Origin: Stramenopiles sp. TOSAG23-2
Taxonomy: Eukaryota
DNA length: 38,077 nt
NCBI GenBank assembly: GCA_900128395.1
Contig: LT649320.1
Span: 1 to 38,077, forward strand
Reading direction: 5' to 3'
This document shows, piece by piece, positions 224-37,922 of the stretch (position 1 is the stretch's first letter; each line of letters begins with the position of its first letter). Made by a program: the position numbers and the translations under genes. Under the pieces are notes generated by a model. The model had not been told where the DNA came from. It saw nothing but the letters and a program-made list of their open reading frames with translations, and made no database searches.

Positions 224-2272
224 ATGGCAACTTTATATGCCAGACAATTGCTTGGGTTGGATGGTAAAGAGAGTGGGGATAATGATTCTAATATGCCAAC
301 GCAAAGCAGATTTCGTAGTGTTTCTAAATCAACACGTCATCGACCAAATTTATTTAATCCAAGTTATGAATACGATGAAGATGCAGCTACTACATATTAT
401 CCTAAATCCTTAGGAACGAAGCGCCTTTTGGAACATGCGCTAAGCGAGCATTATTTGTTTTCACAACTTGCAAAACGTGATTTATCGGAAGTTGTTAATG
501 CTATGAAAAAGAAACTAGCACATACAAACGATACAATTATTACTCAAGGAACAGAAGGTGATCTTTTTTACATATTGGAGGAAGGTGCTTGTGAAGCATA
601 TGTAAATGGAAAATCTGTGAAAAAATATGCTAGTGGTGAAAGTTTTGGTGAACTTGCACTTTTACATAGCTGTCCACGTGCTGCATCCGTTGTTGCTACA
701 TCCCATGGGACTTTATGGACATTAAATCGCGCTACATTTAAACGGACTTTACAAAATTCCAAAGTAAAAGAAAACATTAAACGTTGTGAATTTTTAAAAA
801 AAGTGCCAAATTTTAAGACATTGACAAATCAAGAAATTGGTAGCATTGCTGGTGTGATTGAAATGGAAATGTATGACAAAGGCAATAATATTGTTCGTGA
901 AGGTGAAAGGGGTGATAAATTTTACATTATACAAGATGGCGAATGCAATGCATTGAAAAAAGCAGATGGGGAAATTGTTACAATTGGTACTTTGCAAGCA
1001 GGTGATTTTTTTGGTGAAACTGCAATTATTACCCATGAACCACGAAATGCAACTGTGCAAGTTACGTCGGATACAGCAATTGTTTTATCATTATCAAAAT
1101 ATGATTTTGAAACGGTCCTTGGGCCATTGAAACACTTAATGGACGATGTACGGCGGAAACGCAGGAATGATACGGCAAGCGCATTGAAAAGGCATAGCCA
1201 ATCTTCTGGCAGGGGAAGTGATACAGAAGGTAAAAAAGGAGGTAAAAGTGAACCAGCAACTGCAGATTTATCTATTTTATGGGAAGATTTGAAATTTTAT
1301 GTTACGCTAGGAACTGGTACATTTGGTAGGGTCAAATTAGTAGAACACGTGCCTACAAATCGCGCGATGGCATTGAAAGCGATGCAAAAAGCACAAGTAG
1401 TAAGGGCACACCAAGCAAAAAATGTTTGTAGCGAGAAAGATTCAATGTTAATGTGCAACCACCCTTTTGTTATTAAATTGTATCGTACATTCCAAGATAA
1501 AAATTCAATTTACATGTTATTGGAGTTGGTGCAAGGCGGTGAATTATGGAGTTTACTATATCAAAGCAAAGCATTACCACGGACTCGTATTGGTATTGGT
1601 GGCTTTGAATCTAATGCATGTAAATTTTATGCGGCTTGTGTAGTCAGCGCGTTTGAACACATCCATGGATTTGGTATCGCATATCGTGATTTAAAACCTG
1701 AAAATTTATTATTAGCAGCAAATGGCTATTTAAAAGTCGTTGATTTTGGTTTTGCTAAGAAATTGCCATATCGTAAAAAGGGCAAATTGTTGCATCAAAC
1801 GTTTACTTTATGCGGAACGCCAGAATATTTGTCACCGGAATTAGTGAAACAAACAGGTCATAATCGTGGTGTAGATTGGTGGGCATGTGGTATATTGATA
1901 CATGAATTGTTACATGGGGAAACCCCATTTTGCGATGATAATCAACATCAAATGTTTAAAATGATTATGCAATCAAAAAAATATTTAAAAATCGATGAAC
2001 GTGTTGAAGGAAGCGGTAATGATATTATAAATAAATTGCTTGAGAAAGATTCGGCAAGGCGATTTGGTACTGTCCGTGGTGGCGTAGAAGATGTGAAAAA
2101 CCATCCATGGTTTAGTACAATCAATTGGGATAAATTGGTCAATCAGGATATAGCAGCACCTTTTGTGCCAAGTTTGAAAAATGCATTAGATACATCAATG
2201 TTTGACCCATATGAAGAGAGTGATCATGTACAATCATATCATGGGGATAATAGTGCTTTTGAAACATTTTAA
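224..2272 (+). CDS. Cyclic-nucleotide-dependent protein kinase (PKG-like: two CNB domains fused to an AGC kinase domain)
   Basis: 682-aa ORF. Two phosphate-binding cassettes (FGELALLHSCPRAASV; FGETAIITHEPRNATV), then GTGTFGRV, AYRDLKPEN, DFGFAK, TLCGTPEYLSPE and an AGC tail ending FETF. Confidence 0.93.
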   Translation: MATLYARQLLGLDGKESGDNDSNMPTQSRFRSVSKSTRHRPNLFNPSYEYDEDAATTYYPKSLGTKRLLEHALSEHYLFSQLAKRDLSEVVNAMKKKLAHTNDTIITQGTEGDLFYILEEGACEAYVNGKSVKKYASGESFGELALLHSCPRAASVVATSHGTLWTLNRATFKRTLQNSKVKENIKRCEFLKKVPNFKTLTNQEIGSIAGVIEMEMYDKGNNIVREGERGDKFYIIQDGECNALKKADGEIVTIGTLQAGDFFGETAIITHEPRNATVQVTSDTAIVLSLSKYDFETVLGPLKHLMDDVRRKRRNDTASALKRHSQSSGRGSDTEGKKGGKSEPATADLSILWEDLKFYVTLGTGTFGRVKLVEHVPTNRAMALKAMQKAQVVRAHQAKNVCSEKDSMLMCNHPFVIKLYRTFQDKNSIYMLLELVQGGELWSLLYQSKALPRTRIGIGGFESNACKFYAACVVSAFEHIHGFGIAYRDLKPENLLLAANGYLKVVDFGFAKKLPYRKKGKLLHQTFTLCGTPEYLSPELVKQTGHNRGVDWWACGILIHELLHGETPFCDDNQHQMFKMIMQSKKYLKIDERVEGSGNDIINKLLEKDSARRFGTVRGGVEDVKNHPWFSTINWDKLVNQDIAAPFVPSLKNALDTSMFDPYEESDHVQSYHGDNSAFETF

Positions 2273-2514
2273 ATGCGTTTACATTTTAAAAAATGTACGG
2301 AATTAAGATTTTATTTTGTAGTTTGTTTTTAACTGTGTTTTTTTTTGATTTCTGTGGATAGAGGCTAGAGGCCGTTGATTTGGTACACTCCTTTTTATCA
2401 TATTTTTACTCTTCACAAATAGATCTCACGAATATATTTATTTAAATATATGTGTTTTTCTCTTACTCATATGTTAATAAATATATACGACGTATAATTA
2501 TATATATGCACATA

Positions 2515-3645
2515 TTAATGCTTCCATTCACCTGTATCATCACAAAATAATGGCCTAGCAGTTGGATAACATTCAGGTGTTTCACAGGTGAAATGCAATT
2601 GTCTACATGCTTTGCCTTTTTTACCCCATGGTGCATGTTCATCCGTGAAGCATCGTGCGGATGAACCAAAATTTGTATGCAAACCATTTTTTCGCTCATT
2701 TACTGTAGGTGTTATATAACATGTTTGTTTATTTACTTCTTTATTTTCTTGTCTCCAATCTTTTGAACAACCGGTCCTTTCTCCGGTATATTCATCAATG
2801 GTACATTTAGGACAATTATCTTGTATATCCGTACATGCAGAAGGACATGGTTTGATCCCTACGCCATTATTACTTTCATCGCATTTATAAAATAATTGAT
2901 AACACCATGCTTGTGTCAATGCATCCATGCAATCGTTTGATTGCCCTGAACCAATTAATGGGGTTTGTTCTAAATGGCGCCATTCCACACTTAAGGTTTG
3001 ATAATTTACATATTTGCCACATATATGCAAGTCGCCATAGTTTGGTTGTTTACAAGCATTCATTCCAGTAACTGGATGCAATGAATATTTAATCGATTTA
3101 ACGCTCGTAGTACTACTATTATTATTATTATTATTCCCTTCATCAGGTTTAAAATTTACACGTACATACCACCATCCTTCTTGAACTAAATGTGGTGCAT
3201 TGACACCAACAGCAAAATAACCACCATTAATTTCATCTTTTCCACCAGATTTATATAATTTTTCTTTACTTTCTTCAAAGATTGTAGAATGTTTTGTATA
3301 TGCAGTTGATACATCAGAAATACCAATATTATTAGTAGCATCACATCCATGTCTTAAATATAATGATAATGCATCTGCATTTTCATCATGGTCAGTAAAT
3401 AATGATACTTTTAATGCAGCTGGTTTGGATAAATATATTTTATAATATGCACTTTTTCCCATGTTAGTTAATAAATTAACTTCATCGTAATTTTGATCTG
3501 GTTGGATTTCTTTAGCTGATATACATTTATCATATTCCGTCATCGTAGATGTTGTTGATGAAGAAGTTACTATATCAAACATATGGGACATACATAGTAT
3601 TATTATTATTTTAATAAAAAATAATAATTGAATCTGGTTATACAT
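2515..3645 (-). CDS. Secreted cysteine-rich protein with a PPC-like beta domain and a Frizzled-like CRD
   Basis: Hydrophobic N-terminus. YYKIYL..LKVSL..LSLYLRHG..GWWYVRV resembles the pre-peptidase C-terminal (PPC) domain. CMDALTQAWCYQLFYKC..KPCPSACTDIQDNC matches Fz-CRD cysteine spacing. Confidence 0.65.
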   Translation of the reverse strand: MYNQIQLLFFIKIIIILCMSHMFDIVTSSSTTSTMTEYDKCISAKEIQPDQNYDEVNLLTNMGKSAYYKIYLSKPAALKVSLFTDHDENADALSLYLRHGCDATNNIGISDVSTAYTKHSTIFEESKEKLYKSGGKDEINGGYFAVGVNAPHLVQEGWWYVRVNFKPDEGNNNNNNSSTTSVKSIKYSLHPVTGMNACKQPNYGDLHICGKYVNYQTLSVEWRHLEQTPLIGSGQSNDCMDALTQAWCYQLFYKCDESNNGVGIKPCPSACTDIQDNCPKCTIDEYTGERTGCSKDWRQENKEVNKQTCYITPTVNERKNGLHTNFGSSARCFTDEHAPWGKKGKACRQLHFTCETPECYPTARPLFCDDTGEWKH

Positions 3646-4442: not shown

Positions 4443-5083
4443 ATGTTGAGAACATCTGTTTTGAAGGTAAGGCAAGTACGTAAACGTGCTGTTGATTGGT
4501 TAGCATTATCAGGAAAAGTGAGTACTGATGGTGCAAGGACTGACGTCAACCGTTTACGTGATTTATATGATGAAATCAATGCTGCTGCTAAAATGTATGA
4601 AGGTGAAGTAGCTGCAATTGATTTTGCAGGATACCGTAAAGATATCAGTGCACCTGGTATTGTTGATGAGTTTGAAGTACGTAATACACATATATCTATC
4701 GAACACTATTATCTATACACAAAGATAAAACGTTTCCTTCCTATATCTTATATAATATATTTAAAAACATATTTTACTAACAGAATACTTATGTATATAA
4801 ACAGGCCGCATACAATTCCATAGTTTACCCAGAAATCAAATTAAGTGAAAGTACAGTTGCTGATATGAATGCTAAAATGGATCAAATCTTAGCAGATGCA
4901 TCAACAATGCGTGAAGAATCCGTTTCTCGTTTAGCAGAATTGGAAAGTATGATTGCTGAAGCCGAAGCAAACAAAACAACACGTGACACAACTATTGATG
5001 AAGTATTAGCAAGATATCCACATATTGCTGAAGAGATTGATGATGAAATTGAAAATCATCAATGGTGGAAAGATGTTAATTAA
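4443..5083 (+). CDS. ATP5PD: Mitochondrial ATP synthase subunit d (exons 4443-4676 and 4805-5083)
   Basis: AVDW..., IDFAGYRKDISAPGIVDEFE and TIDEVLARYPHI..EIENHQW are typical of subunit d. A phase-0 GT-AG intron joins the two ORF-track fragments in frame (..DEFE|AAYNSIVYP..). Confidence 0.88.
4677..4804 (+). other. Spliceosomal intron (128 nt)
   Basis: GTACGT donor at 4677, TACTAAC branch site at 4775-4781, ACAG acceptor ending at 4804. Removal restores the reading frame. Confidence 0.88.
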
Positions 5084-5847: not shown

Positions 5848-6612
5848 TTATGCCTCTTTCATTTCGACATCATCCGTTGACACTGTCGCATCGCCAAATG
5901 CAGTATTTAAATAATTTTTCAATTCATCGACACTTAACATTTTAACATCTTGATCTTTACCAACTATTGCAATGCCAACACTTTCAGCTGTTAAATCTTT
6001 ATCACCAGCTGCACCTTCTAAAGATTTCAAAGCATGTATTACTAATTCATCAACAGATAAGTCTGGGAATGTTTCAAATACTTTTTCCAAATATGTCCTA
6101 GCACTTTGTGATCTGGAGCCAATGGCTTGCGCTTTATGTTCGTAATAATGTGCGGTTGGGCTTGTTTCATATATATGTGGTCCAGTCTTATCATATCCAG
6201 CAACCAATAAACCAACACCAAATGGACGACCACGTTCATATGTCATATCTTGTGTACATCTTTGATGCATATCAGAAATGTGGGAAACTAAACGTCCAAC
6301 TTGTAAACTTGCACCGTATACGAACCTATGGTTTAAGCATTCCATTCGCATATGATCGCTCAAATATCGCGCATCTGCGGTTAAACCAGAGATTGAAATG
6401 ACTAAATGTGAATCCATTTTAAATAACTTTTCTTGGTATGATGCTAATTCGTCTGGTGACCTTTTCAATACCCCTAAAACTGCATGTGTTTTGCTTTTAA
6501 TTCCAACACAACATGAACCTTGTTTCACTGCTTCAGCAGCATATTCAACTTGAAACAATCGTCCTTGCGGGGAAAATGTGGTTGGATCTGTATCGTATTG
6601 ATTTCTAAACAT
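5848..6612 (-). CDS. PSMA1: 20S proteasome subunit alpha type 1 (alpha-6)
   Basis: MFRNQYDTDPTTFSPQGRLFQVEYAAEAVKQGS, RPFGVGLLVAGYD, AIGSRSQSARTYLE. Confidence 0.97.
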   Translation of the reverse strand: MFRNQYDTDPTTFSPQGRLFQVEYAAEAVKQGSCCVGIKSKTHAVLGVLKRSPDELASYQEKLFKMDSHLVISISGLTADARYLSDHMRMECLNHRFVYGASLQVGRLVSHISDMHQRCTQDMTYERGRPFGVGLLVAGYDKTGPHIYETSPTAHYYEHKAQAIGSRSQSARTYLEKVFETFPDLSVDELVIHALKSLEGAAGDKDLTAESVGIAIVGKDQDVKMLSVDELKNYLNTAFGDATVSTDDVEMKEA

Positions 6613-7741: not shown

Positions 7742-9142
7742 ATGTTACGTTCCGCTATTGTATTATTATGTATGGTAGCATTAGTTAATGCCGGTAGTTT
7801 AAGAGCACCGGATGCAGCACCAGCAAATGCTCCAGAATCTGAAGTATTAAACAAAGCATCTGAAGTTGCAAACTCTGCAGCAAGAGTACCATTGCCACAA
7901 GGAGGTCCACATGGTATGAACAGAGGAAGCGGTTATGTACCAAAATGGTCACATGACGTATTAAATAATAATGTTAAAGCAATTAAAGACAACTGGGCAA
8001 ACCAAGAAGGTAAACTTGGATATTACAATGGACATTTTGGTTACAACCCAAGTGTACACCCAGATTTACAAGGAAACGTTGTTAACCCAGCACAATTTGG
8101 TTTGAGTGGCATTCCAGCTGCAACACCAGGTTACATGCAACCTATGTTCAAAGCATCTGCATACAAAGGTAACCAACCATCAGTTGGTATGCCACCAGTG
8201 GTTCCAGGTATGCCATATCTTGGACAACCAAGTGAAAAGTTAGATGCTATGAGGCAAATCAACGAGGCAACTGCTGCTGCAAAGCAAGGTGTTGCTGCAG
8301 TGCAAAACATGGTACCAGTTACATTGGCAAATGGTATTCGAATGAACGTTCCACAAGGTGAAGCAAATGCATTAGGTATTCCAGGTATGCCAGTGCAACC
8401 AAACGGCAAACTAGCTGTTGATGCAAATAAATTGTTAGGTTCACCTATCACTTTACCAGGTACACCAGAACATTACAAAGATGTTACCACCCGTATCTTG
8501 AACGAGCAAGCTTCTGTAGGAGCACAAATCGCAAATGTACAAGCAGTTGAGACCCAGCACGCACAAAGAGCTGCATATTTAGGCGCTATGATGCATCAAT
8601 TGCAACAACAATATTTACAAGCACAACATTTGGATCACTTACAAAAAACATACATGGAAAAAATGGCACGTCGTAATGCTGCACTTGGTATTGACCGTCA
8701 TCGTGTACAAAACGAATATTCATTAGGTGGTTTATTGAACCAATACAACTCTGTAAAAGCATACGAGCAACATGTACGTAGTGTAGTTTCTCAAATCGAT
8801 GTCGTTAAACAAAACTTGATGAAAGAAATCATGACCTTCAGACAAAGTATTCGTAAAGATACCAATGCCATCAAAGAATTATTAGATGGTAAAATGCCAT
8901 CTGCATCAGCAAGTGGCCCAGAAGGTAAATTGGAAAAAGAAGAACAAGCAGCATTATCCTTAGGCGAAAAAGCAGCTGATCAGCAAAAGAAAGCAGATAC
9001 AGACGCAGTTAAAGCAAATGATGAATTCATCAACCATGTTGAATCCGCATTGAACAAAGGACCAGGTGGTGATTCTAGTGGTTCTAGTGGTGCTGCTGCT
9101 CCAGCAGCATCTGGAGCAGAGGGACGTGCACCTAAATTGTAA
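7742..9142 (+). CDS. Secreted Pro/Gly/Ala-rich and coiled-coil protein of unknown function
   Basis: 466-aa ORF with signal peptide MLRSAIVLLCMVALVNA and visibly strong codon bias (CCA/GGT/GCA). Helical Gln/Leu-rich C-terminal half. Confidence 0.85.
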   Translation: MLRSAIVLLCMVALVNAGSLRAPDAAPANAPESEVLNKASEVANSAARVPLPQGGPHGMNRGSGYVPKWSHDVLNNNVKAIKDNWANQEGKLGYYNGHFGYNPSVHPDLQGNVVNPAQFGLSGIPAATPGYMQPMFKASAYKGNQPSVGMPPVVPGMPYLGQPSEKLDAMRQINEATAAAKQGVAAVQNMVPVTLANGIRMNVPQGEANALGIPGMPVQPNGKLAVDANKLLGSPITLPGTPEHYKDVTTRILNEQASVGAQIANVQAVETQHAQRAAYLGAMMHQLQQQYLQAQHLDHLQKTYMEKMARRNAALGIDRHRVQNEYSLGGLLNQYNSVKAYEQHVRSVVSQIDVVKQNLMKEIMTFRQSIRKDTNAIKELLDGKMPSASASGPEGKLEKEEQAALSLGEKAADQQKKADTDAVKANDEFINHVESALNKGPGGDSSGSSGAAAPAASGAEGRAPKL

Positions 9143-9573: not shown

Positions 9574-10425
9574 CTATTTCAACCATCCTTGTTTCTTTGC
9601 TTGTTCAAACATATCAATAATATGAATTTTCTCATCTTCAACAATCTCTGGATGCCATATATCAAATAATAATAAAATTCGTTCTGTTGTTCCATTATGG
9701 TATACGTAATGTTCATAACTATCATCAAATATCATCAATTCACCTTCTTTCCATTCTTTTGCCTCACCGCCAACAACAATCCCACAATTATCTGGTACAA
9801 CTAACGGCAAATGGCATCGTAAACGTAAATTGGTGGGTCCATAATGTGCATCAATATCTGAATAAGGCATTAACGAACTGAAAAAACTATATGCAAATGG
9901 AATTTGTGTTTGTAAAAGATCAATGGAATTTAAAAATTTTGTTGTAGATGGGCAATGCTTTTCGAAAATAGGCTGTTTCTCCCCTTTTAATATGTATGAA
10001 TGCCATTCCCATTTACCACCATGCAACGTATGTTCTGTCTCATTTATTTCATAATCGGACTTGCATTCTTTACGCATGTTCAAACATTCCTCTCGGATCT
10101 TAGATACAACCTCGGGAGTAATTAAATTTGTAATATCTTTTTTCAAATTGAATTCATTACCTGAATAAAAAGGCTTTGACGTCAAACCAGGTAACGTGAA
10201 AACACTTGGATTCGGCCTTGCAATTGGTGGGTCTTTAAATTTTAATATTCTGGATGGATATATATTACATTGCAAAGGATCTTCGTTGGCATTATTATTA
10301 CTATTATTATTTTGATTCGTTAGTCTCGTCGTGGTATAACATTTATTATTATTATTATTAGATTGAAAATGTAATCTAATTTCTTTTGTTTGATTTTTTA
10401 ATTGTAACAAAAATCGTTTCATCAT
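9574..10425 (-). CDS. Aspartyl/asparaginyl beta-hydroxylase-domain (Fe/2OG dioxygenase) protein
   Basis: FSSL.P..IDAHYGPTNLRLRCHLPL, WKEGELMIFDDSYEHYVYH, RILLLFDIWHP. Confidence 0.9.
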   Translation of the reverse strand: MMKRFLLQLKNQTKEIRLHFQSNNNNNKCYTTTRLTNQNNNSNNNANEDPLQCNIYPSRILKFKDPPIARPNPSVFTLPGLTSKPFYSGNEFNLKKDITNLITPEVVSKIREECLNMRKECKSDYEINETEHTLHGGKWEWHSYILKGEKQPIFEKHCPSTTKFLNSIDLLQTQIPFAYSFFSSLMPYSDIDAHYGPTNLRLRCHLPLVVPDNCGIVVGGEAKEWKEGELMIFDDSYEHYVYHNGTTERILLLFDIWHPEIVEDEKIHIIDMFEQAKKQGWLK

Positions 10426-10803: not shown

Positions 10804-12426
10804 ATGGGGTTTGACGGATTTGAGATGTTTCGTGCAAAATGCCAAGGAATTGGATATTGGACACATTTTTTTTGTGGTGCAATAGTTGCAATCCTTCAGT
10901 TAAAATCATATAATATGTTGGCAAATGCAGTAGCTTTTTTATTAATTGCATATCAATTGACAGATTACATGTATGGGATTGAAGATATGTACGTCACTAA
11001 TGAATTTGGGTTGTTTAGAGATTTAATAGAATACTTAATTGGATACATATTTGTTATCTGTGGAGCATACTTGGAACGAAAAAGAAGAAAAGAATCATCA
11101 AATCACAATAATGAGATGAAAGTATCATCTTCAACATCATTATCTCCGATTGCTGTTACAACTATTGTTTTTGGATCAATGACATTTGAATTAAGCCGTG
11201 TCACCATACAAGTTATATTGCCAATTATTTTTAAATATGCATTAGGATTGTCAAGAGATCAAAAAACAACATTGCAATCACTGAATTTCTTTGGTGCATT
11301 CCTTGGAATGTTTGCTGCTGCACCACTAACTGGATTATTAGGTTCACAAAAATTGACAAGTTTAAGTTTATTGATGTTAGGTTTATTAGTCATCCTGCTA
11401 TCATCCGATTTCGGATCAATAGCATTTCTTAATTTAGAAATTATTGTTTTTGTTATGGGTACAATATTATCAATTGTATCTGTCGGTCTAAATACAACCG
11501 TACAAATAGTTTCTAGTGGTAAAAATCGCACAAGCGCAAATTTACTATATCGTGCAAGTGGATTATTATCAGTAATTATTGGTCCACAAATTACATGGTT
11601 AATGGAAAATAGTAATAGCTCAAGTGATGATGCAGATCATAATACGAAATTATCAATGGCATATCTTGTATTGCATATATTAGCTGGCTTTGAAATTCTG
11701 GGGGCAATTGTTTTATTTTATTGCAACTATGTTGTCACTAAAGCTAATGTGAAAATAATTGAAAATTTAGATAAGAAAACTGCAAAGAAAAAAAACTTAT
11801 CGTTTCGTAAGATAGCAAATATTTTTGTAACAATATATGCATATCAACCTTTATTTTATTTTTGTGTTGTATTATCATGTATTGCCAGTATAGAACCCGT
11901 TATGAAAGGATTTTTACCTGATTATGTTGGTGGCAGCCCATCATTTCAAAGCTCAATGCACTCCCTTGCTGCAACGGTTAGCCTATTATTGGTAGGCACA
12001 CAATTTTTAAAAGGTAAAGATTGTAGATCAGCGTTATTTACATTTTCATGTCTACATTCTACTGGTATGATTGGTCTATCGTTTTTTAAGCATCCAATTG
12101 GTAAAGCATCCTCGTACATTTTAGTAAAAGTTGTGACTGATTTGGCAAAGATACCAACAGGTATATGGACAACGAAATGTGCAGAAGGTTATATGAAACA
12201 TAAAAATGAAACGACGAAAAATAATGATTTAACCGTGGCAATTATTGTAGCCTCTGGATTAGGCATGCAAAAATTATTAGGGTCGTTGTTAAAAGCATTT
12301 ATTAGCGCTGGCGTCAGAGCAGCAGGTGAAGATAATATTAGTTTGGACCATGTTTTTATATTTTTAATGTGCGGTGCATTCACCGCTACATATTTTATTG
12401 GCAAATTGCCAAATTACATGATGTAA
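10804..12426 (+). CDS. MFS-like multi-pass transporter with an extra N-terminal membrane domain
   Basis: 540 aa with many TM segments. Motif-A-like APLTGLLGSQK after TM2 of the core and RTSANLLY in the TM4-5 loop. Confidence 0.7.
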   Translation: MGFDGFEMFRAKCQGIGYWTHFFCGAIVAILQLKSYNMLANAVAFLLIAYQLTDYMYGIEDMYVTNEFGLFRDLIEYLIGYIFVICGAYLERKRRKESSNHNNEMKVSSSTSLSPIAVTTIVFGSMTFELSRVTIQVILPIIFKYALGLSRDQKTTLQSLNFFGAFLGMFAAAPLTGLLGSQKLTSLSLLMLGLLVILLSSDFGSIAFLNLEIIVFVMGTILSIVSVGLNTTVQIVSSGKNRTSANLLYRASGLLSVIIGPQITWLMENSNSSSDDADHNTKLSMAYLVLHILAGFEILGAIVLFYCNYVVTKANVKIIENLDKKTAKKKNLSFRKIANIFVTIYAYQPLFYFCVVLSCIASIEPVMKGFLPDYVGGSPSFQSSMHSLAATVSLLLVGTQFLKGKDCRSALFTFSCLHSTGMIGLSFFKHPIGKASSYILVKVVTDLAKIPTGIWTTKCAEGYMKHKNETTKNNDLTVAIIVASGLGMQKLLGSLLKAFISAGVRAAGEDNISLDHVFIFLMCGAFTATYFIGKLPNYMM

Positions 12427-12570
12427 AAAACCAGTGTAAGGACAGGTTATTATAGTGTATTTTATGTGTTTATAAGATTAAACCATGGCATGATAATCAC
12501 GGAGAAGGATATTTAAAATAATATTATAACACTTAGATTTTGTAAAAATAATAAAATAAATAAATTACTA

Positions 12571-26639: not shown

Positions 26640-28925
26640 TTATTTATTCTTCCCCCATACATTTTTACTTCCACCCGGATTATTATTACCATTGCCTGAC
26701 ATGGCTCTTCGACTTTTTTTACTTTGATTATTTGTCTTTGCAGCTTCTCCTAAAGTTGGAAAGAAACCCATGGTTTTAGTTATATTTGCAAAACTTTTAT
26801 CTTTTTTCTTCCCAATGTTATTATATGCAGCAGGAAGAGCAGGTTCTTTTAAAACTATTTTAGGTGGTGAACCGACAGAAGGAAAATTCTTTGGTGCCAA
26901 AGATTCTTTACGTTCTTTTTCTATTTTAGCGCTTATCATTTCAGGCGATGGGCAATCACGACTTTTATTGTGTGATTTATTTCCATTTTTATGTTTTTCT
27001 TTCATTTTTTTATCACGATCTCTTTTTCGCTTTTGAAGCTCCTTTTTAAACTTATTCTTTGTCGCTTGTGAAAGAAGATCATTTAAATCAATTTCTATTA
27101 ATTTAATTTCTGCATTGAGATTTAAATGGGATAAATACTTGTAAAATTTCGCCTTATCTTTTGTTAAAGTAACAGTTTCGATATCCAACACGTCACTTGA
27201 CTTTAATTCAGATGGAAAATTATCATATGTTTTAAATTCTTCTTTTAACAGATTGACACAAAACGGATGCAAAAATGTTTTGCTACCATCTTCAAGTTGG
27301 TAAAAGTAGAAACCTGTTTCAGTAGAACCAATTTTATTTAATGCAATTGGCTGTTGTTGTAAATTCGTTGGTGCCACAAGTTTTGGTGGCGAAATAGTTG
27401 TAGTTTTCTCCACCAAATTACTTTCAACAGTTGATTTCTGTAACTTGTCTTTTTTACTATTCGGGCTGGTTCCTCCTCCTCCTCCTAAAGATGGATACTC
27501 TTCCTCATCAAGTATAATTTTATTGTTTTTCGCAGATTTTTCTTCTTTCTTCTTCTTTTCAGATTCAATAATAGTTTCAATTAATTCATGTAATTCCCAC
27601 TTCAATGCCTTCTCAGCAATCATTTGACGTCCAAGACTATCTAATTGCGTTATTGACTCGTTTTCCTTTTGACTATCTTCGTATTTACCAATAATAGCAA
27701 GAAAATTCGCATCTTGTTTTGCCTCTGTAACTACTTTATTTAAATCTTCAATTTCTTTACATAAAATAGATTTTATATATTCTTTTGTGCATCTTAAAAA
27801 TTGTGTAAATTTTAAAAGTTGTTCTTTCTCGTTAAAATAATTATTATTGCCATTTTTTATTATTTTTACAGTAGGCATTTTTTTTTGCATTACATTATTC
27901 CATTCTTCATTTGTGATTGTTGATAAATATGCAAAGGTTGATCGAGTTGATATTTTATTGCGAAACATTAACTTAAAAGTAGCTAAAGCCGTATTACTTT
28001 TATCATTATCTTTTGCTATTGGATTGATATTGCTATTATTATTGTTATTATTGTCATCAATATCATCATTGTCATTACTATTTTCATTCTTCTTCTCGCT
28101 ACTAGTAGTTTTATTATTCTTTTTCTGATGTTGTTTGATACTAATTGTTGGTTTTATAGAAGTAATATAGCGATTTGCTGTTGGTCTTAATTTTTCTTTT
28201 GTAATTGGGTCATTACATATTGCGCATTTCACCCAATTTTTTCGATTCGAATTTTCCAAAAGTCTTAACACACATAACATGCAATATACATGACCACAAC
28301 AATTCATTAATGGCACTTCGGGTTTGCATAAACATATTGGGCAAGAAAAATCGTTATTATCTTCCAGATCAAATAAAACTTGTTCTACATCGTTCCAGTC
28401 AACTTTTTTATTATTATGAATCAACATATATGGATTATTCGTTTCAGATGCAGATGGGCCAGATACAACAAAACGATAAGTTGCTTTTAAAAATGCATTG
28501 CGATCAAATACAGGATGGTGAACTTTATGTTGCGACCGTTTCCCTATTACAGTGGATGGAAAGTAATTAAGACTATCATCCACTTCACGTTCATATTTAA
28601 AGCCTAGGAATGCACTATTTATTTGTTGTTGTGATTTTTTATTATTTTTTTTACTATTATTACCTTTATATATTTTTGCTGTCGTTATATTTTGTTGTTG
28701 CTGCTTTTTATAATGATTGCGTCGTGTTGGATATTTTTTTGTATTATTGTTATTGTAAGCACTTTTGTTTTTCTTGTTATTTTTTTTCTTGTTACTGTAT
28801 TTTTTATTAGTATTGTTATTGTTATTATTATTCTTTGAATTCCCTGATGAAGAATTGTTATTGTTATTATTATTATTATTATTACTTGGTATCCATTCTT
28901 TTGCATTAACTGATAATGCTGACAT
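26640..28925 (-). CDS. RNF10: RING E3 ligase RNF10/Mag2 homologue
   Basis: FLKATYRFVV..VDWNDVEQV, RING CPICL..CGHVYCMLC..WVKCAIC, FYFYQLEDGSKTFLHP, YKYLSHL. Confidence 0.88.
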   Translation of the reverse strand: MSALSVNAKEWIPSNNNNNNNNNNSSSGNSKNNNNNNNTNKKYSNKKKNNKKNKSAYNNNNTKKYPTRRNHYKKQQQQNITTAKIYKGNNSKKNNKKSQQQINSAFLGFKYEREVDDSLNYFPSTVIGKRSQHKVHHPVFDRNAFLKATYRFVVSGPSASETNNPYMLIHNNKKVDWNDVEQVLFDLEDNNDFSCPICLCKPEVPLMNCCGHVYCMLCVLRLLENSNRKNWVKCAICNDPITKEKLRPTANRYITSIKPTISIKQHQKKNNKTTSSEKKNENSNDNDDIDDNNNNNNSNINPIAKDNDKSNTALATFKLMFRNKISTRSTFAYLSTITNEEWNNVMQKKMPTVKIIKNGNNNYFNEKEQLLKFTQFLRCTKEYIKSILCKEIEDLNKVVTEAKQDANFLAIIGKYEDSQKENESITQLDSLGRQMIAEKALKWELHELIETIIESEKKKKEEKSAKNNKIILDEEEYPSLGGGGGTSPNSKKDKLQKSTVESNLVEKTTTISPPKLVAPTNLQQQPIALNKIGSTETGFYFYQLEDGSKTFLHPFCVNLLKEEFKTYDNFPSELKSSDVLDIETVTLTKDKAKFYKYLSHLNLNAEIKLIEIDLNDLLSQATKNKFKKELQKRKRDRDKKMKEKHKNGNKSHNKSRDCPSPEMISAKIEKERKESLAPKNFPSVGSPPKIVLKEPALPAAYNNIGKKKDKSFANITKTMGFFPTLGEAAKTNNQSKKSRRAMSGNGNNNPGGSKNVWGKNK

Positions 28926-29290: not shown

Positions 29291-31318
29291 ATGCCAGTGA
29301 AACAAATTGCACGTAAATTCCATACTCTTGACTTAGCTTTAAGCACTGGTGGATTGTATGTTGGCGGTCTTATCGATATTGGGTATGGACCACAAAGGCA
29401 TGGAGAAGGAACCAGATATTACAAAGATAGGGAAACTATAGCATATGAGGGTTCCTATAAATATGGTAGATGGGATGGTCATGGGAAACGATTTGCTGCT
29501 GATGGACGCTTAATTTATGAAGGATATTTTTACAACGATTTGTATCATGGTAGAGGTACTTTATATGGAGATAATGGAGAATATTATGAAGGTGAATGGG
29601 TAGACGGATTGAAAGATGGTCCTGGTACATATGTAAAACAAGATGGAGAGAAATACACGGGCAATTGGAAAAAAGGTAAATACCACGGCAAAGGTAAATT
29701 GCATAATAAAGAAGGAACTCTAATTTTCAAAGGAACCCACAAATACGGTATTCGAGTTGGTGAATGTTATTTCCTAGATGAAGACAATGGAGAAGTATTT
29801 GATGGAAATCATATTGATGGAATATTGCATGGTCAAGCGAAATATGTCGATTCGCATGGTAATTCCTATGAAGGATCTTGGAATATGGGTACTCGTGAAG
29901 GGTATGGCAAATCTGTAAATAGAGATGGTAGTAAATATGTCGGTCAATGGAAAAGTGATGAGAAAAATGGAGATGGGGAAGACATTGATAAGGATGGTTA
30001 TAATTTAAAAGGTACCTTTGTAAATGGCTATTTAGAAAATTATGGTATATTGTATTATCCAAATAAAGCAATAGCATATGAAGGTGAGTTTAAAAAAAGC
30101 AAATTTCATGGGCTAGGTGAAATATTCCGAGGAGACGGAATACTTGTGTACTCTGGAACATTTAAAAATGGAAAATACGATGGTTATGGAAATTGCTACA
30201 TGGCAAATAATGGTTATTACTACGGCTACTGGAAAAATGGACTGCGGCATACTGGAAATAGTGAATTAATAACAGTTGAGGAGGAGGAAGAAGAAGGGGA
30301 AGAAGAAGACGATGAAGATAAATTTAAAACTGGTGAATTCCGAGATGAACATGGGTGGGTTTACTCCGGTGAATGGGTTAATGATAAAAGGCACGGTAAA
30401 GGAAAATTGTATGACCAACATGGTGTACTAGTGTACGACGGTGAATTTGTCAATAATATTGTAAATGGCGAAGGGCATCATCATTATACTAGTGTAATGA
30501 TGAGAGGGAGTGACTTCAAAGGTACATTTATTAATGGAAAGAAAGAAGGTGATGGCATATTAACGTATAAAGATGGCACGGTCTTATACAAAGGCACGTA
30601 TGTACACGATACATGGCATGGTGAGGGGGAATGGCAAGATTTATATGGCACGTGGTACAAAGGCACATTTGTTCTTGGGAAACGCACTGGTAGTGGCGAA
30701 GTTCAATTGAGCAATGGTCACTTTTACAAGGGTGATTTTTTGGATGGGAAATATCATGGAAAAGGTGTCTTAGTAAAACGTAAGGTGGTTTGTGATGGTT
30801 ATTTTAAAAATGGGGAATATTTAGAGAGCAATGATGAAAGGGAAGAACGTTTGAAAGTAGAAGAAAAAGAAAGAAAACGCAGGGAATTAAAGAAAAATGC
30901 CATAGCAGAACAAATGCGAAGACGGGATGCTGCATTGAAACGACGAGCAGATGCAAAAGCAAAAGCTATGTCAAAATTGTCCAATTGGGGGGATGATAAT
31001 GATGATATGGAAGATATTAATGAAGCAAATGAACGCATAATGGCAGAGGAACAAGAAAAGCAGCGTTTATTAAAAATAGAAGAAGATAGAAAGAAAAAAG
31101 AGGAGGAAGCTAAAAGAGCAGCTGAAACTCCAGAGGAAGAAATCTTACCATCATTAGCAAAACAAAAACGACTTGATATATTGAATAAACGTGGTTCAAG
31201 AGCATTAAGTAGGAAAAAAATTCCACGTAAACATGGTAAAGGTGTCTCCGAGACCATGGAAATGAAGAAAATTGAACGGAAATCAATGTTACAATTACCA
31301 AAGTTGAATAGTCCATAA
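29291..31318 (+). CDS. MORN-repeat protein with a C-terminal charged coiled coil
   Basis: About 20 YxGx(W/F)xxGxxHGxG repeats. First ATG in the ORF is at 29291. Confidence 0.93.
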   Translation: MPVKQIARKFHTLDLALSTGGLYVGGLIDIGYGPQRHGEGTRYYKDRETIAYEGSYKYGRWDGHGKRFAADGRLIYEGYFYNDLYHGRGTLYGDNGEYYEGEWVDGLKDGPGTYVKQDGEKYTGNWKKGKYHGKGKLHNKEGTLIFKGTHKYGIRVGECYFLDEDNGEVFDGNHIDGILHGQAKYVDSHGNSYEGSWNMGTREGYGKSVNRDGSKYVGQWKSDEKNGDGEDIDKDGYNLKGTFVNGYLENYGILYYPNKAIAYEGEFKKSKFHGLGEIFRGDGILVYSGTFKNGKYDGYGNCYMANNGYYYGYWKNGLRHTGNSELITVEEEEEEGEEEDDEDKFKTGEFRDEHGWVYSGEWVNDKRHGKGKLYDQHGVLVYDGEFVNNIVNGEGHHHYTSVMMRGSDFKGTFINGKKEGDGILTYKDGTVLYKGTYVHDTWHGEGEWQDLYGTWYKGTFVLGKRTGSGEVQLSNGHFYKGDFLDGKYHGKGVLVKRKVVCDGYFKNGEYLESNDEREERLKVEEKERKRRELKKNAIAEQMRRRDAALKRRADAKAKAMSKLSNWGDDNDDMEDINEANERIMAEEQEKQRLLKIEEDRKKKEEEAKRAAETPEEEILPSLAKQKRLDILNKRGSRALSRKKIPRKHGKGVSETMEMKKIERKSMLQLPKLNSP

Positions 31319-31521: not shown

Positions 31522-33138
31522 TTAATTTAAACTTTGTTTACTAGCATTTAATGTTTCAGCTAATTTCATTTGATAACTACGAATACTTTGTGTTAATGAC
31601 AGATTACCATTTGTTGCTGCTAAAATATCATCATCATTTAAGTTATCGTTGTCCTTTAATGATGGTGCGACAATATTTGTAAATTTAGATAATGAGCCAT
31701 GGGCTTTAGCTGGACCCATATCTGGCATTTTTGGTAAAACAGAACGACGATGCGCAGCTTTATTTTGCCGTTTCCTATCAGAAATCAAAGCAGAATATTG
31801 ATGTACCAAATTTTTCCCTCTTGATTCTAAAATACCTAAAAACAACATGTAATTATCGCTTTTAACTTCCGTGGTTGGATCGCTAACTGTAATAGCTTCC
31901 GGGTTTGATTGTAAAAATTCTATTTGACTGGCATCTTTTCCCGTTATGAATTTATCACAACCAATTTTAAAGAAAGTGGTATGTAATGGCTCAAACAAAG
32001 TCTCTAAATTTTGCAACGCTTCTTCATGCATGTGTTTTCCATTTAAATAGGACTGTTCAGATTTTATATTTTCTTTCTGGCTTTGAGATAAAACTTCTGC
32101 CCTTTCAGCATTACGAGATTCGTTTGCCTCCATAATTGATTTAAATTCATTATTTAACATTTGTACAGTCTTTAATGCTTCCTCATATTCTAGCGTAACC
32201 TCATTTACTTTATTGATCAAATTGAATTCATCCTTTGACATTGTATCAAACGAAGTGGTTACAGCTTGGTATATTTCTTTTCCATTTCCATTAAATTCTA
32301 AACCGACGGCACCACTTAATGCAGCGAATTGCTCTTCTACATGTTCCAATTCTTTCAATTTCCGTTCATATGCCATATCGCTTAAACTTGCCAATGATGA
32401 AGATGAATTTTTTCTACCTTTATTCACTGGCGATAATGCTTTTCCGTGCATCCTTGTTGTGCTAGATCTGCGATGAAGCTTTTGACGCTGCAATTTTTGT
32501 ATTGCAATATCTGTGCGATCGATGATAACGGTCAAATCTTCATAATCTTTTAAAAATTGATGTTTGTCTTGGTCATACATTTTCTTTAAGTCTTGCATAC
32601 GGAGTTGTGCAGCATCTCTATCCGCATATAAATTTTCAATTTCATAGTTCAGCTGCTTTAATTCATGCGCTGTATCTGCAAGGTCATCGATCATGCGTTG
32701 AGAGACACGTTCAAATACGATTTTCTCCCTGCGTGCTAAGTCGATCTCACGTTTAATTTCATTGTTAAAACCAACTGCCTTGTCATTTTTACTTAAGACG
32801 AATTGTTTTCGTTTAGTTAATAGTTCACATTCTTGGCGTATACGCCTTTGACTCACAGCCGGTGCATCAGATGCACCAAGTGGCCGTTCACTAAGTTGCC
32901 TAATATCATCTCCGCGAGTGACCCAAGTAGCATAACTGCCCATTTTTTTTCTTGTACCCCAAAGCTCGTCTTTAATCACATTGACTTGAGGTTCCAAAGC
33001 ATCTATTTGTGTTTGAATTTGTACGATGTCATTCTCTATATCCACTTTTTCTAACTCTAGACCATGTGCTTCACGTACAGCTTTTTGTTGCCATATGGTT
33101 AAAGGCTTTACGTCTGAAACATCGTCTTCATCAGCCAT
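31522..33138 (-). CDS. Outer dynein arm docking complex-like coiled-coil protein (ODAD1/CCDC114/CCDC63 family)
   Basis: NNEIKREIDLARREKIVFE..LYADRDAAQ, DEFNLINKVNE and SDNYMLFLGILESR resemble conserved blocks of the ODA-DC2 family. Confidence 0.72.
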   Translation of the reverse strand: MADEDDVSDVKPLTIWQQKAVREAHGLELEKVDIENDIVQIQTQIDALEPQVNVIKDELWGTRKKMGSYATWVTRGDDIRQLSERPLGASDAPAVSQRRIRQECELLTKRKQFVLSKNDKAVGFNNEIKREIDLARREKIVFERVSQRMIDDLADTAHELKQLNYEIENLYADRDAAQLRMQDLKKMYDQDKHQFLKDYEDLTVIIDRTDIAIQKLQRQKLHRRSSTTRMHGKALSPVNKGRKNSSSSLASLSDMAYERKLKELEHVEEQFAALSGAVGLEFNGNGKEIYQAVTTSFDTMSKDEFNLINKVNEVTLEYEEALKTVQMLNNEFKSIMEANESRNAERAEVLSQSQKENIKSEQSYLNGKHMHEEALQNLETLFEPLHTTFFKIGCDKFITGKDASQIEFLQSNPEAITVSDPTTEVKSDNYMLFLGILESRGKNLVHQYSALISDRKRQNKAAHRRSVLPKMPDMGPAKAHGSLSKFTNIVAPSLKDNDNLNDDDILAATNGNLSLTQSIRSYQMKLAETLNASKQSLN

Positions 33139-34019: not shown

Positions 34020-35120
34020 ATGAGTAACTTGGAAAAAAATAAAGTGACGTCGGCGTTGGTAAGTATTTTCTGTCGACAATATTACCCCTTAATATAGATC
34101 CAATGCTAACAATACTGATTTGAATCAAAATACTAGCCATTATTATCAAGTTTAGCGTATGCTTGTTGCTCTATAGGTATGATATTGTTTAACAAAGCCC
34201 TGGTATCAACATTTCAATATACGCATTTTACGACGTTAATTATGATACAAAATACAATAGGATTAACTTGCTTATTATTACTACGAAATTACATAGATTT
34301 TATAAAGTTTCCTATAAATTTAGATTTGAACTTGGTAAAAGTGTGGATTCCTGCTAATTTATTCTTTGTGTTCATGCTGTATACGGGTTCAGGGAGTTTG
34401 CATGGATTGCCTGTTCAACTTGTTACCGTATTCAAAAACACAACAAATGTTATTATCGCATTTGGCGATTATTTTCTTTTCAATAACGAAACTTCATCTA
34501 TGGGTATCTTTAGTTTTGTATTAACCCTTCTAGCTACGTTATATACTGCGAAAGAAGATTTTGAACATCATCAACGAATCCAAGGTTACATTTACATGAC
34601 TTTGAATTGCTTAACAACCGCAGGTTATGTTTTGTATTTAAGATACGCCATTAAGAAAACTAAATTTACACGTTTTGGTGCGGCATATTATAACAATGTG
34701 CTATCGATTCCAATACTTTTCATATTTTCATGTGTCAATAATGGTAACCCAATTAAGCCCTTTTTGCATGATGCATTTTCAAATTTTTCATTTTGCTTCA
34801 TGCTTCTTTGCACTGGCGCATTAGGTGTTACACTTTCTATATCAGCAATGTGGTGTATTGAATCAACATCTGCAACGACATATTGTGTTGTAGGAGCGGC
34901 AAATAAAGTTGTATTAGCTATACTTGGTGTTGTATTTTTCCACAGCAAGATTACGCAAAAAACTTGGATATTTATAGTTGTAGGTATACTTGCAGGTTTA
35001 TTGTATGGCTTGTCTAAATTACCATCTGCTAAAACAGATGATGATAAAAAAAAAAATGATGATAAAAACAATACGAGGAGTACAATTCCATTGAAAAATA
35101 TTAAAAGTAGTGCTGTATGA
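34020..35120 (+). CDS. Golgi GDP-sugar (GDP-mannose/fucose) transporter, VRG4/GONST-like (exons 34020-34058 and 34137-35120)
   Basis: The spliced N-terminus reads MSNLEKNKVTSAL|PLLSSLAYACCSIGMILFNK. Also TVFKNTTN, YYNNVLS and TSATTYCVVGAANK (GALNK-like motif). Confidence 0.88.
34059..34136 (+). other. Spliceosomal intron (78 nt)
   Basis: GTAAGT donor, TGCTAAC branch at 34104-34110, CTAG acceptor. It contains an in-frame stop, and removal gives the conserved TM1. Confidence 0.88.
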
Positions 35121-35367
35121 GAGAGAAAAATATACGAGTGTGTAATGTGTGGGCTAATGCAAAAGATTTCAAAATATTTTTAAAAAGTACGAATATGATA
35201 CCTGTAAAAATAATTGACATAGATATGATATAATATCATACAAAAGCTCGTACGATTTTTCGTTCTAGTAATTTCTTAATTCCGTCACTTATATCTCCCA
35301 TGTATCATATTATCAAATATTAATATACTCGTAATATTTAGTATAATTAACGCTATATAACTTATTC

Positions 35368-35410
35368 TTTAATTTACTCATGATAATTCCTTACTCTCCA
35401 GAAAAAATAC
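35368..35410. repeat. Dispersed repeat family, copy C (terminal fragment)
   Basis: TTTAATTTACTCATGATAATTCCTTACTCTCCAGAAAAAATAC differs from the reverse complement of 12788-12829 by one indel and one substitution. Confidence 0.85.
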
Positions 35411-35675
35411 GAAGTACGAACCTCGTACAAAATATATTACATCATTTATAAAATTAATTTAATAATTTAAATATTAAAAAAACAAATATACAGAGGTGCG
35501 TGTATGTGAAATTAAATTCATAAAACACGACTAAAGTCATGTGTACAGATATTATAATACGAGAGAGTAATATATACGAGTATATATACGACTCGTATTA
35601 TATATAATTTTTTTCTAAATATTTTTTTTCAAAAATAAAATAACATACCCACACCAAAAACATAAAACATGTGTG

Positions 35676-37922
35676 TTACTGTCCATCACCGAACCAACAC
35701 AATCGTACAATTATTTGATTATTGCCATCTTGAATTGTGCTAATATTATTTGGACAACCAAGGTATTCCCCTGATTCTTGATTAACACTAATTACTGGAA
35801 TATGAATTTCTTTTTCTAGGGGATCGCCAACATTCATCTTTGCACGCACCGGTAAGTCTGCTTTTCCATCTTTTTTTTGACAACAAAATATTAACATCTT
35901 AGCTCCAGCTTGGCAAGCCTCATATGCAATTGTGCCGAAACTAGTTGATTCTGGAAACCCAGCTGCCGGCCTGCTTACCAAAAGTGCTTTCCCCATGCTC
36001 GTTGATGAGTCAATTTTTGGTACGCCGTTTATATCAGTTACACATATAACTGGCAAATGCATTGATGAATAATTAGACTGCTTTCCAAACTTTGCTCGTT
36101 TACAATCCATCATGTTGCAACTTTGTTCTACGTTTAATTTCTCATCAATAATCCTGCCCTCAATTTTTAAACGAGGTCTTTGTACAACGGCAATGGAAAA
36201 CATTGGCGCACTTCCTATCTTCAAAACATATTGACCAGCTAAGTCTGGATATGGATATGCAGGGTTATGGTCAGTTGCGCCTGGTATTCTACCCCATGAA
36301 AATACTTGCCCACTACTAGTCAACGCAGTTGTATGCATTTTACCACACACCACGTCTTTGATATACAATTGTACATTTTCTAAATATTTATTGTTTTCCT
36401 TACTATTTGTACTTCCAATAAGGAAATCATCCCTCAAAACCACTTCAACTGGTTCAGCGATAAACGCACGGGAGGAAGATAAACTGAAAAATATTTTTGA
36501 TAAATTTTCATCAACATCCACATTGTTACTGTTTTCATCGATGCCATTATTTAAACTATTGGACGTTACCTGGCCATACTGATTACGACCCCACATAAAC
36601 AATTTTCCATCATCAAACAATGCAGCAAAATGTCTTCCTCCATTAGCAACTTTAATGCACTTTGCCTTTACCCTTTTTGCACTTTCTGGAAATTTTACCC
36701 GCTTGAAAATTGACTTTGATGCTCCATCATCACTGAACGTAATTTGCGTTGTTCCATCATCATTCCCGCTTGAATAAATTCTACCATCGTTAGTCAAAGC
36801 CAGTATGGATCGTTCGCCACATGCTACTTGTTTCATGTTGTTTATTAATTTATTGTACGAGCTTCTTTCTACAGTATCGTCCCCATCATTGCTTATGTTG
36901 TTGTCAGTATTGTTTGCTGACAATATTGTATACATACTTCCTCTACGTTTCAAGGCAGAAACAGGTTCGGCAATACCATCGCGTACACCACGGTGATTCA
37001 TCACACTATCCTCGTCTTTCTTTTTAAAAGCTAATTCTTGTTTCATTTTGGCACTAAGCTCAACATCATGTACTTCGCCCTCTGCATCATTTTTCCATAA
37101 GTAGACACCCAATTTTCCTTTGTCCTTCGAACTTTTTGATTCATGTGCAATTGCCATATTTCCCTGTCCTTGACAACAAAATAAATCTTTGTCTAACACA
37201 TTTAACAATGGGATAGGATGAAAATATTGGCTACCACCAAAATTATATAACTTATATCTTGTTTTCCGATTTGNNNNNNNCCCACACTCAATATCGTGAA
37301 CAGATATTTTTCTTTTTAAATTTTCTTCCATACTTGGTACTATTGGTATTATTTCACCCTTTGCATCGTCAACACTTTTATATAATGCAGACGTCCCATA
37401 TCCACAAGAATATAATTTATCATCTTTAGTAAATATAATAATTTGAGATTCCCCTCCACATACTTTTTTAATATTTTCTGCTTTCAAATCATTCACATTG
37501 TCAAACGACAATACGAATTGTGCGCTTTCAGCTAGTTGCGATTCGCCTTTTTTATCACTACTTGACATAGCACCACATAAAAATGCTAGTTTTCTAAATC
37601 CAAATTTACCAGTAGCACCCCCTTTTTTTGTACCATCTTCAATATCATTAGTATTCAAAGCAGATACTTCAGAATCATCTGCCATCCTACCCCATATATA
37701 CAAACCACCTTTCTTTTGATAACTAATTGATGGTGGTGGTAGACCTTCCGATGATACATGTGCCGGCAAACCATTGTATTTGCTTTTTGTAATACATTCT
37801 TTTTCAATTAAACCACGTGGTATTGTTAATTTATTATTATAACTCTCATAATTACTATTATTATTGGAAGAAGATATTATTGTAGACGACTTATTATTAT
37901 TAGAAGTAGCGATCGATGCCAT
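35676..37922 (-). CDS. RCC1-repeat protein with a C-terminal PA (protease-associated)-like domain
   Basis: VACGERSILALTNDGRIYSSG, GGRHFAALFDDGKLFMWGRNQYGQ, VVCGKMHTTALTSSGQVFSWG. GKALLVSR..FGTIAYEACQAGAKMLI..IHIPVISVNQESGEYL is PA-like. A 7-N gap at 37274-37280 makes frame continuity uncertain. Confidence 0.8.
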   Translation of the reverse strand: MASIATSNNNKSSTIISSSNNNSNYESYNNKLTIPRGLIEKECITKSKYNGLPAHVSSEGLPPPSISYQKKGGLYIWGRMADDSEVSALNTNDIEDGTKKGGATGKFGFRKLAFLCGAMSSSDKKGESQLAESAQFVLSFDNVNDLKAENIKKVCGGESQIIIFTKDDKLYSCGYGTSALYKSVDDAKGEIIPIVPSMEENLKRKISVHDIECGXXXNRKTRYKLYNFGGSQYFHPIPLLNVLDKDLFCCQGQGNMAIAHESKSSKDKGKLGVYLWKNDAEGEVHDVELSAKMKQELAFKKKDEDSVMNHRGVRDGIAEPVSALKRRGSMYTILSANNTDNNISNDGDDTVERSSYNKLINNMKQVACGERSILALTNDGRIYSSGNDDGTTQITFSDDGASKSIFKRVKFPESAKRVKAKCIKVANGGRHFAALFDDGKLFMWGRNQYGQVTSNSLNNGIDENSNNVDVDENLSKIFFSLSSSRAFIAEPVEVVLRDDFLIGSTNSKENNKYLENVQLYIKDVVCGKMHTTALTSSGQVFSWGRIPGATDHNPAYPYPDLAGQYVLKIGSAPMFSIAVVQRPRLKIEGRIIDEKLNVEQSCNMMDCKRAKFGKQSNYSSMHLPVICVTDINGVPKIDSSTSMGKALLVSRPAAGFPESTSFGTIAYEACQAGAKMLIFCCQKKDGKADLPVRAKMNVGDPLEKEIHIPVISVNQESGEYLGCPNNISTIQDGNNQIIVRLCWFGDGQ

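Follow-up and report, generated by a model that had tools for sequence, protein, structure and literature searches.

Contig LT649320.1 of Stramenopiles sp. TOSAG23-2 (assembly GCA_900128395.1), whose full 38,077 nucleotides (nt) we call the window, raises a question of gene order. Why does each of twenty consecutive genes, from 224 to 37922, lie on the opposite strand to its neighbours, with only head-to-head (divergent) and tail-to-tail (convergent) spacers and no head-to-tail (tandem) pair? An earlier note on this DNA had given such a run a probability of 2^-19 and proposed a genome built from bidirectional-promoter gene pairs with shared termination zones. We found that the run belongs to the upper tail of a strong genome-wide bias and is unremarkable at the genome's own rate. 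The genome is biased toward opposite-strand neighbours, but it is neither strictly alternating nor made up of pairs throughout.

Orientation of neighbouring genes

The window is contig C696 of a 32.8-Mb assembly (9146 contigs, about 32% GC). Its uncultured source is treated here as a marine stramenopile resembling MAST-4, a placement suggested by homologs of the proteasome alpha-6 protein rather than by a tree: the window's copy has a relative at 86% identity, and its cluster includes a protein named Stramenopile-MAST_4. Genes were called with a purpose-written hidden Markov model (HMM) that has a single intergenic state and no strand memory. It was trained on 17 other contigs plus the window, and the pair counts leave the window out. 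With seven held-out contigs scored under the fixed model (the 738-nt contig C1700 was excluded from them), the sample comprises 24 other contigs and 930 kb, or 2.8% of the assembly bases, every contig measuring at least 12.9 kb. In these contigs one gene is found per 2.4 kb and 72% of the DNA is coding; with 71 predicted introns across about 330 genes, the genome is intron-poor. The orientation results rest on these gene models and the sequence.

Same-strand neighbours made up 84 of 315 pairs (26.7%) in the 17 contigs and 10 of 50 in the held-out ones. Pooled, 94 of 365 pairs (25.8%, confidence interval (CI) 21–31%) were tandem and 271 of 365 opposite (p = 5e-21), which excludes the tandem fraction near 50% that the earlier note had named as the outcome speaking against it, and bears out its view that the pattern reflects a property of the whole genome. 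High-confidence neighbours, where both genes had a Pfam match (found in 47 of 99 short genes tested) or an exon of at least 900 nt, gave 44 of 185 (24%). In a control that reuses the HMM's own gene calls, randomly oriented gene units were 49–52% same-strand.

Strand switches were independent of one another, with no second-order dependence (p = 0.66), and heterogeneity among contigs was not clear (p = 0.10). The mean directon held 1.35 genes and the longest five. Alternating runs of 15 genes occurred in two contigs, C613 and C614, and the simulated longest run for 17 such contigs had a median of 14. A genome composed only of gene pairs is not supported by these figures: a quarter of all neighbours are tandem and the switches are independent. 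Nor is 2^-19 the appropriate null. At the genome's own same-strand rate of 26%, 19 switches have a probability of 0.0035, and about a dozen such runs would be expected per genome if it were contiguous. The HMM omits the gene at 21956(+), and the window then has one same-strand pair in 18; at most one in 18 has P = 7e-5 under 50:50 orientation and 0.03 under the genome's rate. The finding is thus the genome-wide bias, and the 20-gene run itself is of little importance.

Forces on gene order

When gene order was modelled as reshuffled by inversions, breakage proportional to spacer length alone yielded 45–46% tandem pairs. The observed 26% requires k_div x k_con / k_tan^2 to be about 0.12, with a range of 0.07–0.19; with a factor of 0.12 the model gave 25–26% tandem pairs and no memory, and memory was absent whichever term was small. 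Within the model, this shows that something non-neutral acts on gene order.

We give about even odds to a reading in which selection acts against head-to-tail neighbours while converging genes share termination zones; its orientation side is computed, whereas its mechanism we infer. As computed, each junction is opposite-strand with a probability of about 0.74, independently of the next junction. Inversions would reshuffle gene order, and the junction types would survive them unequally. Read-through from an upstream gene can harm a downstream promoter. The termination region within a head-to-tail pair would come to within a few hundred bases of the following promoter, and the pair would be disfavoured through such read-through. 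In a tail-to-tail pair the two genes would end in one strand-symmetric zone, costly to split and tolerant of small repeats. If opposite-strand junctions were favoured eight-fold in all, the observed rate would then follow without long-range order.

Divergent spacers and promoters

Spacer lengths were taken from coding end to coding end, not from transcription starts, so that ATG-to-ATG distances include both 5' untranslated regions (UTRs). The medians were 742 nt for divergent, 607 nt for tandem and 353 nt for convergent spacers (n = 143, 95 and 144), divergent spacers being longer than tandem ones (p = 0.001) and equal to 1.74 promoter sides (CI 1.50–2.33). The 75th percentile of divergent spacers was 957 nt; about three quarters lie below 1 kb, as do the tandem ones. 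Motif and repeat-core counts (145 convergent, 95 tandem and 143 divergent spacers) include 18 spacers of the window. Four promoter-side motifs occurred in the 95 tandem spacers close to the expectation of one promoter per gene: ACCTGC in 9 (11.7 expected), CAGGTA in 28 (22.9), ACAGTAT in 26 (24.6) and AATAGCA in 25 (20.8). By this additivity, the bulk of divergent spacers, not each pair, would contain two promoters. In 5' flanks of 250 nt, none of 29 words separated divergent from tandem genes at p < 0.05; in the 3' flanks many words differed. Statistically, the tail-to-tail junction has its own character, and each gene appears mostly to keep its own promoter side.

These results bear on the best-surviving alternative, in which bidirectional promoters or shared nucleosome-depleted regions bind divergent pairs, as in Ectocarpus and yeasts, and convergent junctions are a by-product. 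We regard it as possible but rather unlikely. In the inversion model, protecting divergent junctions alone reproduces the rate; the 740 nt from ATG to ATG contain two 5' UTRs and could conceal a shared promoter, and the length ratio reaches down to 1.5 at its lower confidence limit. Two divergent pairs are also matched in function: a histone-fold gene, presumably H4-like, with H3 (contig C611, 1114–2668 of the stretch examined), and ribosomal S10 with S8 (contig C628, 5643–7592 of the stretch examined). A minority of divergent pairs of this kind is probably coupled. As a general rule, however, bidirectional promoters were not supported: promoter-side motifs are additive, none of the 29 words set the 5' flanks of divergent genes significantly apart from those of tandem genes, and divergent spacers exceed tandem ones in length, whereas in Ectocarpus they are the shorter kind (409 vs 2293 nt in the available part of bioRxiv 10.1101/2020.03.09.980763).

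Several further observations concern the heads. ACCTGC/GCAGGT and CAGGTA mark 5' flanks (33 of 143 divergent and none of 145 convergent spacers; for example, 22890–22920 of the window) and are a candidate promoter element. GC content at the third codon position, a proxy based on codon bias, was correlated between the members of convergent pairs (rho 0.34, n = 108); the correlation was not significant for divergent pairs (0.14, n = 100), nor for tandem pairs (0.13, n = 65). A two-component fit to divergent spacer lengths was preferred, but six very short outliers probably drive it, and bimodality was left unused.

Convergent spacers, motifs and repeats

TACGA/TCGTA and TATCATA/TATGATA are abundant in convergent spacers. 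Downstream of stops TACGA is as frequent as TCGTA, without strand preference, and the dyad TACGA-N1-4-TCGTA has 1644 matches in the genome against 169 for a reversed control. TATCATA/TATGATA occurred in 86 of 126 convergent spacers of the first set and, replicating this, in 15 of 19 held-out ones; of the held-out tandem spacers 5 of 10 had it, and of the divergent spacers 5 of 21. Tandem spacers held fewer of these elements than an additive expectation allows: TATCATA/TATGATA was present in 41 of 95 against 53.7 (p = 0.006), the dyad in 4 against 15.4, and AGATTTTAACC in 1 against 8.1. Short dispersed repeats are present in convergent spacers as well. One core lies in 18 of the 145 convergent spacers but in only 2 of the 95 tandem ones and 0 of the 143 divergent ones, and a second in 22, 1 and 2, respectively. 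A core of this kind has 587 genomic matches against 20 for its control. Cross-contig repeats with at least three partners were found in 35 of 144 convergent spacers, as compared with 5 of 93 tandem and 8 of 142 divergent ones. Motifs and repeats are therefore enriched between converging genes beyond two independent 3' ends, which lends the proposed shared termination zones indirect support; overall, the sequence speaks less for promoters shared as a rule than for a special tail-to-tail zone.

The repeats of convergent spacers are dispersed and modular, 60–300 nt long and 85–97% alike, and nearly confined to that spacer type (in the window, 12568–12877, 20175–20275 and 22700–22763); the repeat alignments revealed no clear terminal repeats. 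Over the whole sample, the observed/expected ratio of CpG was highest in convergent spacers, at 1.57, and stood at 0.97 for tandem and 0.85 for divergent ones.

Several points weigh against selection on head-to-tail pairs combined with shared ends. Three model settings fit equally well, and the counts cannot separate protected heads, protected tails and penalised tandems. Divergent spacers, at a ratio of 1.74, fall somewhat below two promoter sides, and after repeat masking the mean shortfall was -218 nt (CI -448 to -13), which means that heads or tails are shared to some extent. In the held-out contigs the TACGA dyad did not replicate: 1 of their 19 convergent spacers had it, as compared with 40 of 126 in the first set, and it is missing from 104 of all 145. 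The motifs were picked on the same data on which they were tested, and the tail features may simply ride along in DNA that lacks promoters.

Might the repeats themselves guide tail-swapping rearrangements and so keep alternation going without transcriptional selection? The concentration of multi-partner repeats in convergent spacers and the 587 matches of one core favour this, but tail swaps conserve counts and cannot remove tandem junctions, faster breakage at tails would in the model demand still stronger protection of heads, and the motif excess lies mostly outside repeats, so that we hold this explanation to be highly doubtful. An equally improbable account, that a sample of long, gene-dense contigs or errors in our own gene models have inflated the bias and that the true value is near 40–50% tandem, can draw on the small sample described above, on the 40% reached when all 72 predicted introns are recounted as tandem spacers and on a crude, model-free longest-ORF (open reading frame) count of 34–40% that splits genes at introns, but recounting only introns of at least 150 nt gives 29%, the rate is stable to the gene prior (25–28%) and replicates in held-out DNA, high-confidence pairs stand at 24%, and missed genes would push the tandem share toward 50%, not away from it. 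Paralogs account for 2 of the 185 high-confidence pairs. Tandem duplication was rejected as the origin of same-strand pairs, since it fits only 1 of 44.

Relation to known systems

Opposite-strand bias as a kind is known. Brown algae, also stramenopiles, have a genome-wide excess of alternating neighbours: more than 60% in Ectocarpales (available part of bioRxiv 10.1101/2024.02.19.579948), with 61.7% of Ectocarpus genes in divergent pairs that share a nucleosome-depleted region without correlated expression (bioRxiv 10.1101/2020.03.09.980763, likewise in part). The present genome differs in its stronger bias (74%), in being compact and intron-poor, in having divergent spacers longer than tandem ones (742 vs 607 nt) where those of Ectocarpus are about five times shorter than its tandem ones, and in the distinctive sequence of its convergent spacers. 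What is new here is the greater strength than in brown algae, reached without short divergent spacers.

In yeasts, 36 of 45 have fewer than 50% co-oriented pairs (bioRxiv 10.1101/551689; PMC3128071), and yeasts and Theileria show the same length order of divergent > tandem > convergent (these two sources and PMC4761415, all in their available parts). For Theileria we computed 47–54% same-strand pairs from a table in PMC4761415, as compared with 26% here. Plants, fungi and animals average about two genes per directon in the sources available in part, against 1.35 here. For the bidirectional termination zones of Saccharomyces cerevisiae, in the available part of bioRxiv 10.1101/2022.11.02.514956, the likeness would lie in strand-symmetric motifs that sit between the ends of genes and are proposed to stop transcripts arriving from either direction; the motif there is UAUAUA. 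The candidate motifs of the present genome, read from its sequence, are TACGA/TCGTA and TATCATA/TATGATA, mixed with dispersed repeat modules. Bacterial repetitive extragenic palindromes and interspersed mosaic elements (REP/BIME) are short, modular and partly palindromic spacer repeats that follow gene ends and are rare between divergent genes. The likeness is one of analogy: the present elements are eukaryotic and AT-rich, with no transposase or common hairpin shown. An unlikely, further-reaching view is that MAST-4 might have one of the strongest anti-tandem gene orders among eukaryotes, organised by tails, where shared end zones of lineage-specific small palindromes and modular repeats would form a eukaryotic counterpart of REP/BIME and termination would set gene order.

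A literature search turned up no account of biased gene orientation in MAST genomes. Two papers on single-cell genomes of marine stramenopiles (PMC5778133; bioRxiv 10.64898/2026.04.17.719054) use neither 'orientation' nor 'strand' in their main texts, and the available parts of PMC4739763, PMC11267843, PMC8110479 and PMC4501334 give no comparable orientation percentages. Whether 74% is extreme stays relative, as per-species tables for brown algae, yeasts and directons may hold equal values. Opposite-strand preference is usually ascribed to bidirectional promoters; this genome, with its larger bias yet no short divergent spacers, is a good test bed for other causes, such as read-through into the next promoter and shared termination. 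A test is feasible because several MAST-4 species and poly(A) metatranscriptomes with this DNA exist.

Genes of the window and two joints

The twenty genes are, in order (aa, amino acids):

224–2272, +, protein kinase with cyclic-nucleotide (cNMP) binding, PKG-like, 682 aa (Pfam PF00069, PF00027)
2515–3645, −, 376-aa ORF with hydrophobic N-terminus and no family (no Pfam match; coding score 0.31 per codon)
4443–5083, +, mitochondrial ATP synthase subunit d (PF05873 on both pieces; HMM-predicted intron 4677–4804)
5848–6612, −, 20S proteasome alpha-6 (PF00227; homologs)
7742–9142, +, 466-aa ORF, no convincing family (coding score 0.52 per codon)
9574–10425, −, Asp/Asn beta-hydroxylase family (PF05118)
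10804–12426, +, MFS transporter (PF07690)
12947–13996, −, 349-aa ORF, no family (coding score 0.26 per codon)
14849–15727, +, ankyrin-repeat protein (PF12796)
15971–17905, −, lebercilin-like IQ-motif coiled-coil protein (PF00612, PF15619)
19039–19518, +, 159-aa lineage-restricted gene (homologs at 47–68%, invariant MGACGGK start)
20687–21427, −, PDZ-domain protein (PF00595)
21956–22261, +, 5' part, 102 codons long, of a gene whose full product would have about 153 aa (homologs; the ORF onward to 22396 is read-through past the joint)
22259–22678, −, 5' part (140 codons) of a conserved gene with longer homologs
24167–26161, +, 664-aa low-complexity ORF, no convincing family (coding score 0.32 per codon)
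26640–28925, −, RING-finger protein, 761 aa (weak Pfam RING matches, E 2.6e-4)
29291–31318, +, MORN-repeat protein (PF02493)
31522–33138, −, ODAD1-like coiled-coil protein (PF21773)
34020–35120, +, EamA-type transporter (PF00892; short first exon 34020–34058 inferred)
35676–37922, −, RCC1-repeat and PA-domain protein with 7 N inside (PF13540, PF00415)

Features between or across them are:

12568–12877, dispersed-repeat copy of the convergent-spacer type, split by the scaffold gap (94–99% identity to a copy in contig C623 on both sides)
12655–12749, 95-N scaffold gap, first unverified joint (8 nt there in other copies)
15744–15756, TACGA-N3-TCGTA dyad inside a 243-nt convergent spacer
19519–20686, long convergent spacer that contains two dyads (20064, 20645) and, near 20212, a repeat core
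21428–21955, spacer of divergent-type composition (5-mer log-odds negative in 5 of 5 bins) that fits a promoter for 21956(+)
22258–22261, GTAC common to both gene halves, second unverified joint (deletion or chimera), placed from the points where homologs depart
22700–22763, short dispersed repeat, mostly of convergent spacers, immediately 5' of the start codon of 22678 (40 other places among 40 scored of 381 candidates)
35121–35675, convergent spacer with dyads at 35408 and 35587 and 12 TACGA half-sites

A fitting eukaryotic Pfam match was found in 13 of the 20 ORFs, and the support for 2515(−), 7742(+), 12947(−) and 24167(+) consists of length (349–664 aa) and coding score (0.26–0.52 per codon). 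The earlier note had feared unannotated genes in the spacers that would break the pattern; none came to light, as no ORF of at least 50 aa starting with ATG and lying wholly in a spacer scored above 3, nine further window ORFs had no Pfam match, and the window contained no tRNA and no Rfam match. Its coordinates and strands for all twenty genes were correct. Of the two ORFs that it had doubted, 19039(+) is, judged by homologs, a real gene: they match from start to stop at 47–68% identity with a common start and core. The other, 21956(+), turned out to be only a 102-codon 5' half.

The run crosses one scaffold gap, as noted before, of 95 N. This gap sits inside a dispersed repeat, of which four other aligned copies have 8 nt there, and probably hides no gene; the join nevertheless passes through a repeat. 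The second joint was placed at 22258–22261 because homologs of both adjoining genes leave the window sequence there. For 22678(−), 20 homologs at 34–74% identity, with lengths up to 636–819 aa, run past the joint. For 21956(+), near-identical relatives alone were found (4 matches, 87–97%), together with one cluster of 18 members, of which 15 of the 15 listed match the window to codon 102 and then have a different C-terminus. GTAC at 22258–22261 fits the next residues of both genes, and neither missing 3' continuation was found in the assembly. The two would accordingly be 5' halves fused by a deletion or a chimeric join, with a stretch of unknown length lost. With both joints unverified, we count the run as 7 + 6 + 7 genes, so that alternation stands within these segments and is provisional across them. 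Splicing of 22678(−) across 21956(+), or its joining with the PDZ gene, was rejected: the expected next exon is absent from 19501–23400 and from the assembly.

The locus 21956–22763 seems to have been hit by several different deletions or chimeras. Three other database proteins fuse the 21956 5' part to different sequence at other points, and two of them rejoin the window near 22658 and 22690. The 22259–22678(−) part is the N-terminal portion of a conserved eukaryotic family with an FRWLGL-type motif and no Pfam entry, with paralogs elsewhere in the assembly.

Relatives of the window were also sought. A single scan of metagenomes, with 169 pattern matches, led to 1 locus, in which a multi-cNMP kinase lies upstream of the 22678(−) ortholog on the same strand; in this one relative (n = 1) the 22678(−) junction would not be conserved, and that side shows no synteny with the window. 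A scan of viral contigs with proteasome alpha-6 found nothing, and a search with a composite dyad pattern matched 2 loci. Atlas look-ups for P0161 and P0209 scored below 0.9 throughout. Twenty-three sequencing runs share part of 14801–24800, the best 31% of its words, and were not used as evidence. The MGACGGK start of 19039(+) (19039–19060) resembles what we take to be an N-myristoylation/palmitoylation signal and is a candidate only. The assembly contains duplicated contigs, with kinase matches at identical coordinates on C627 and C1812.

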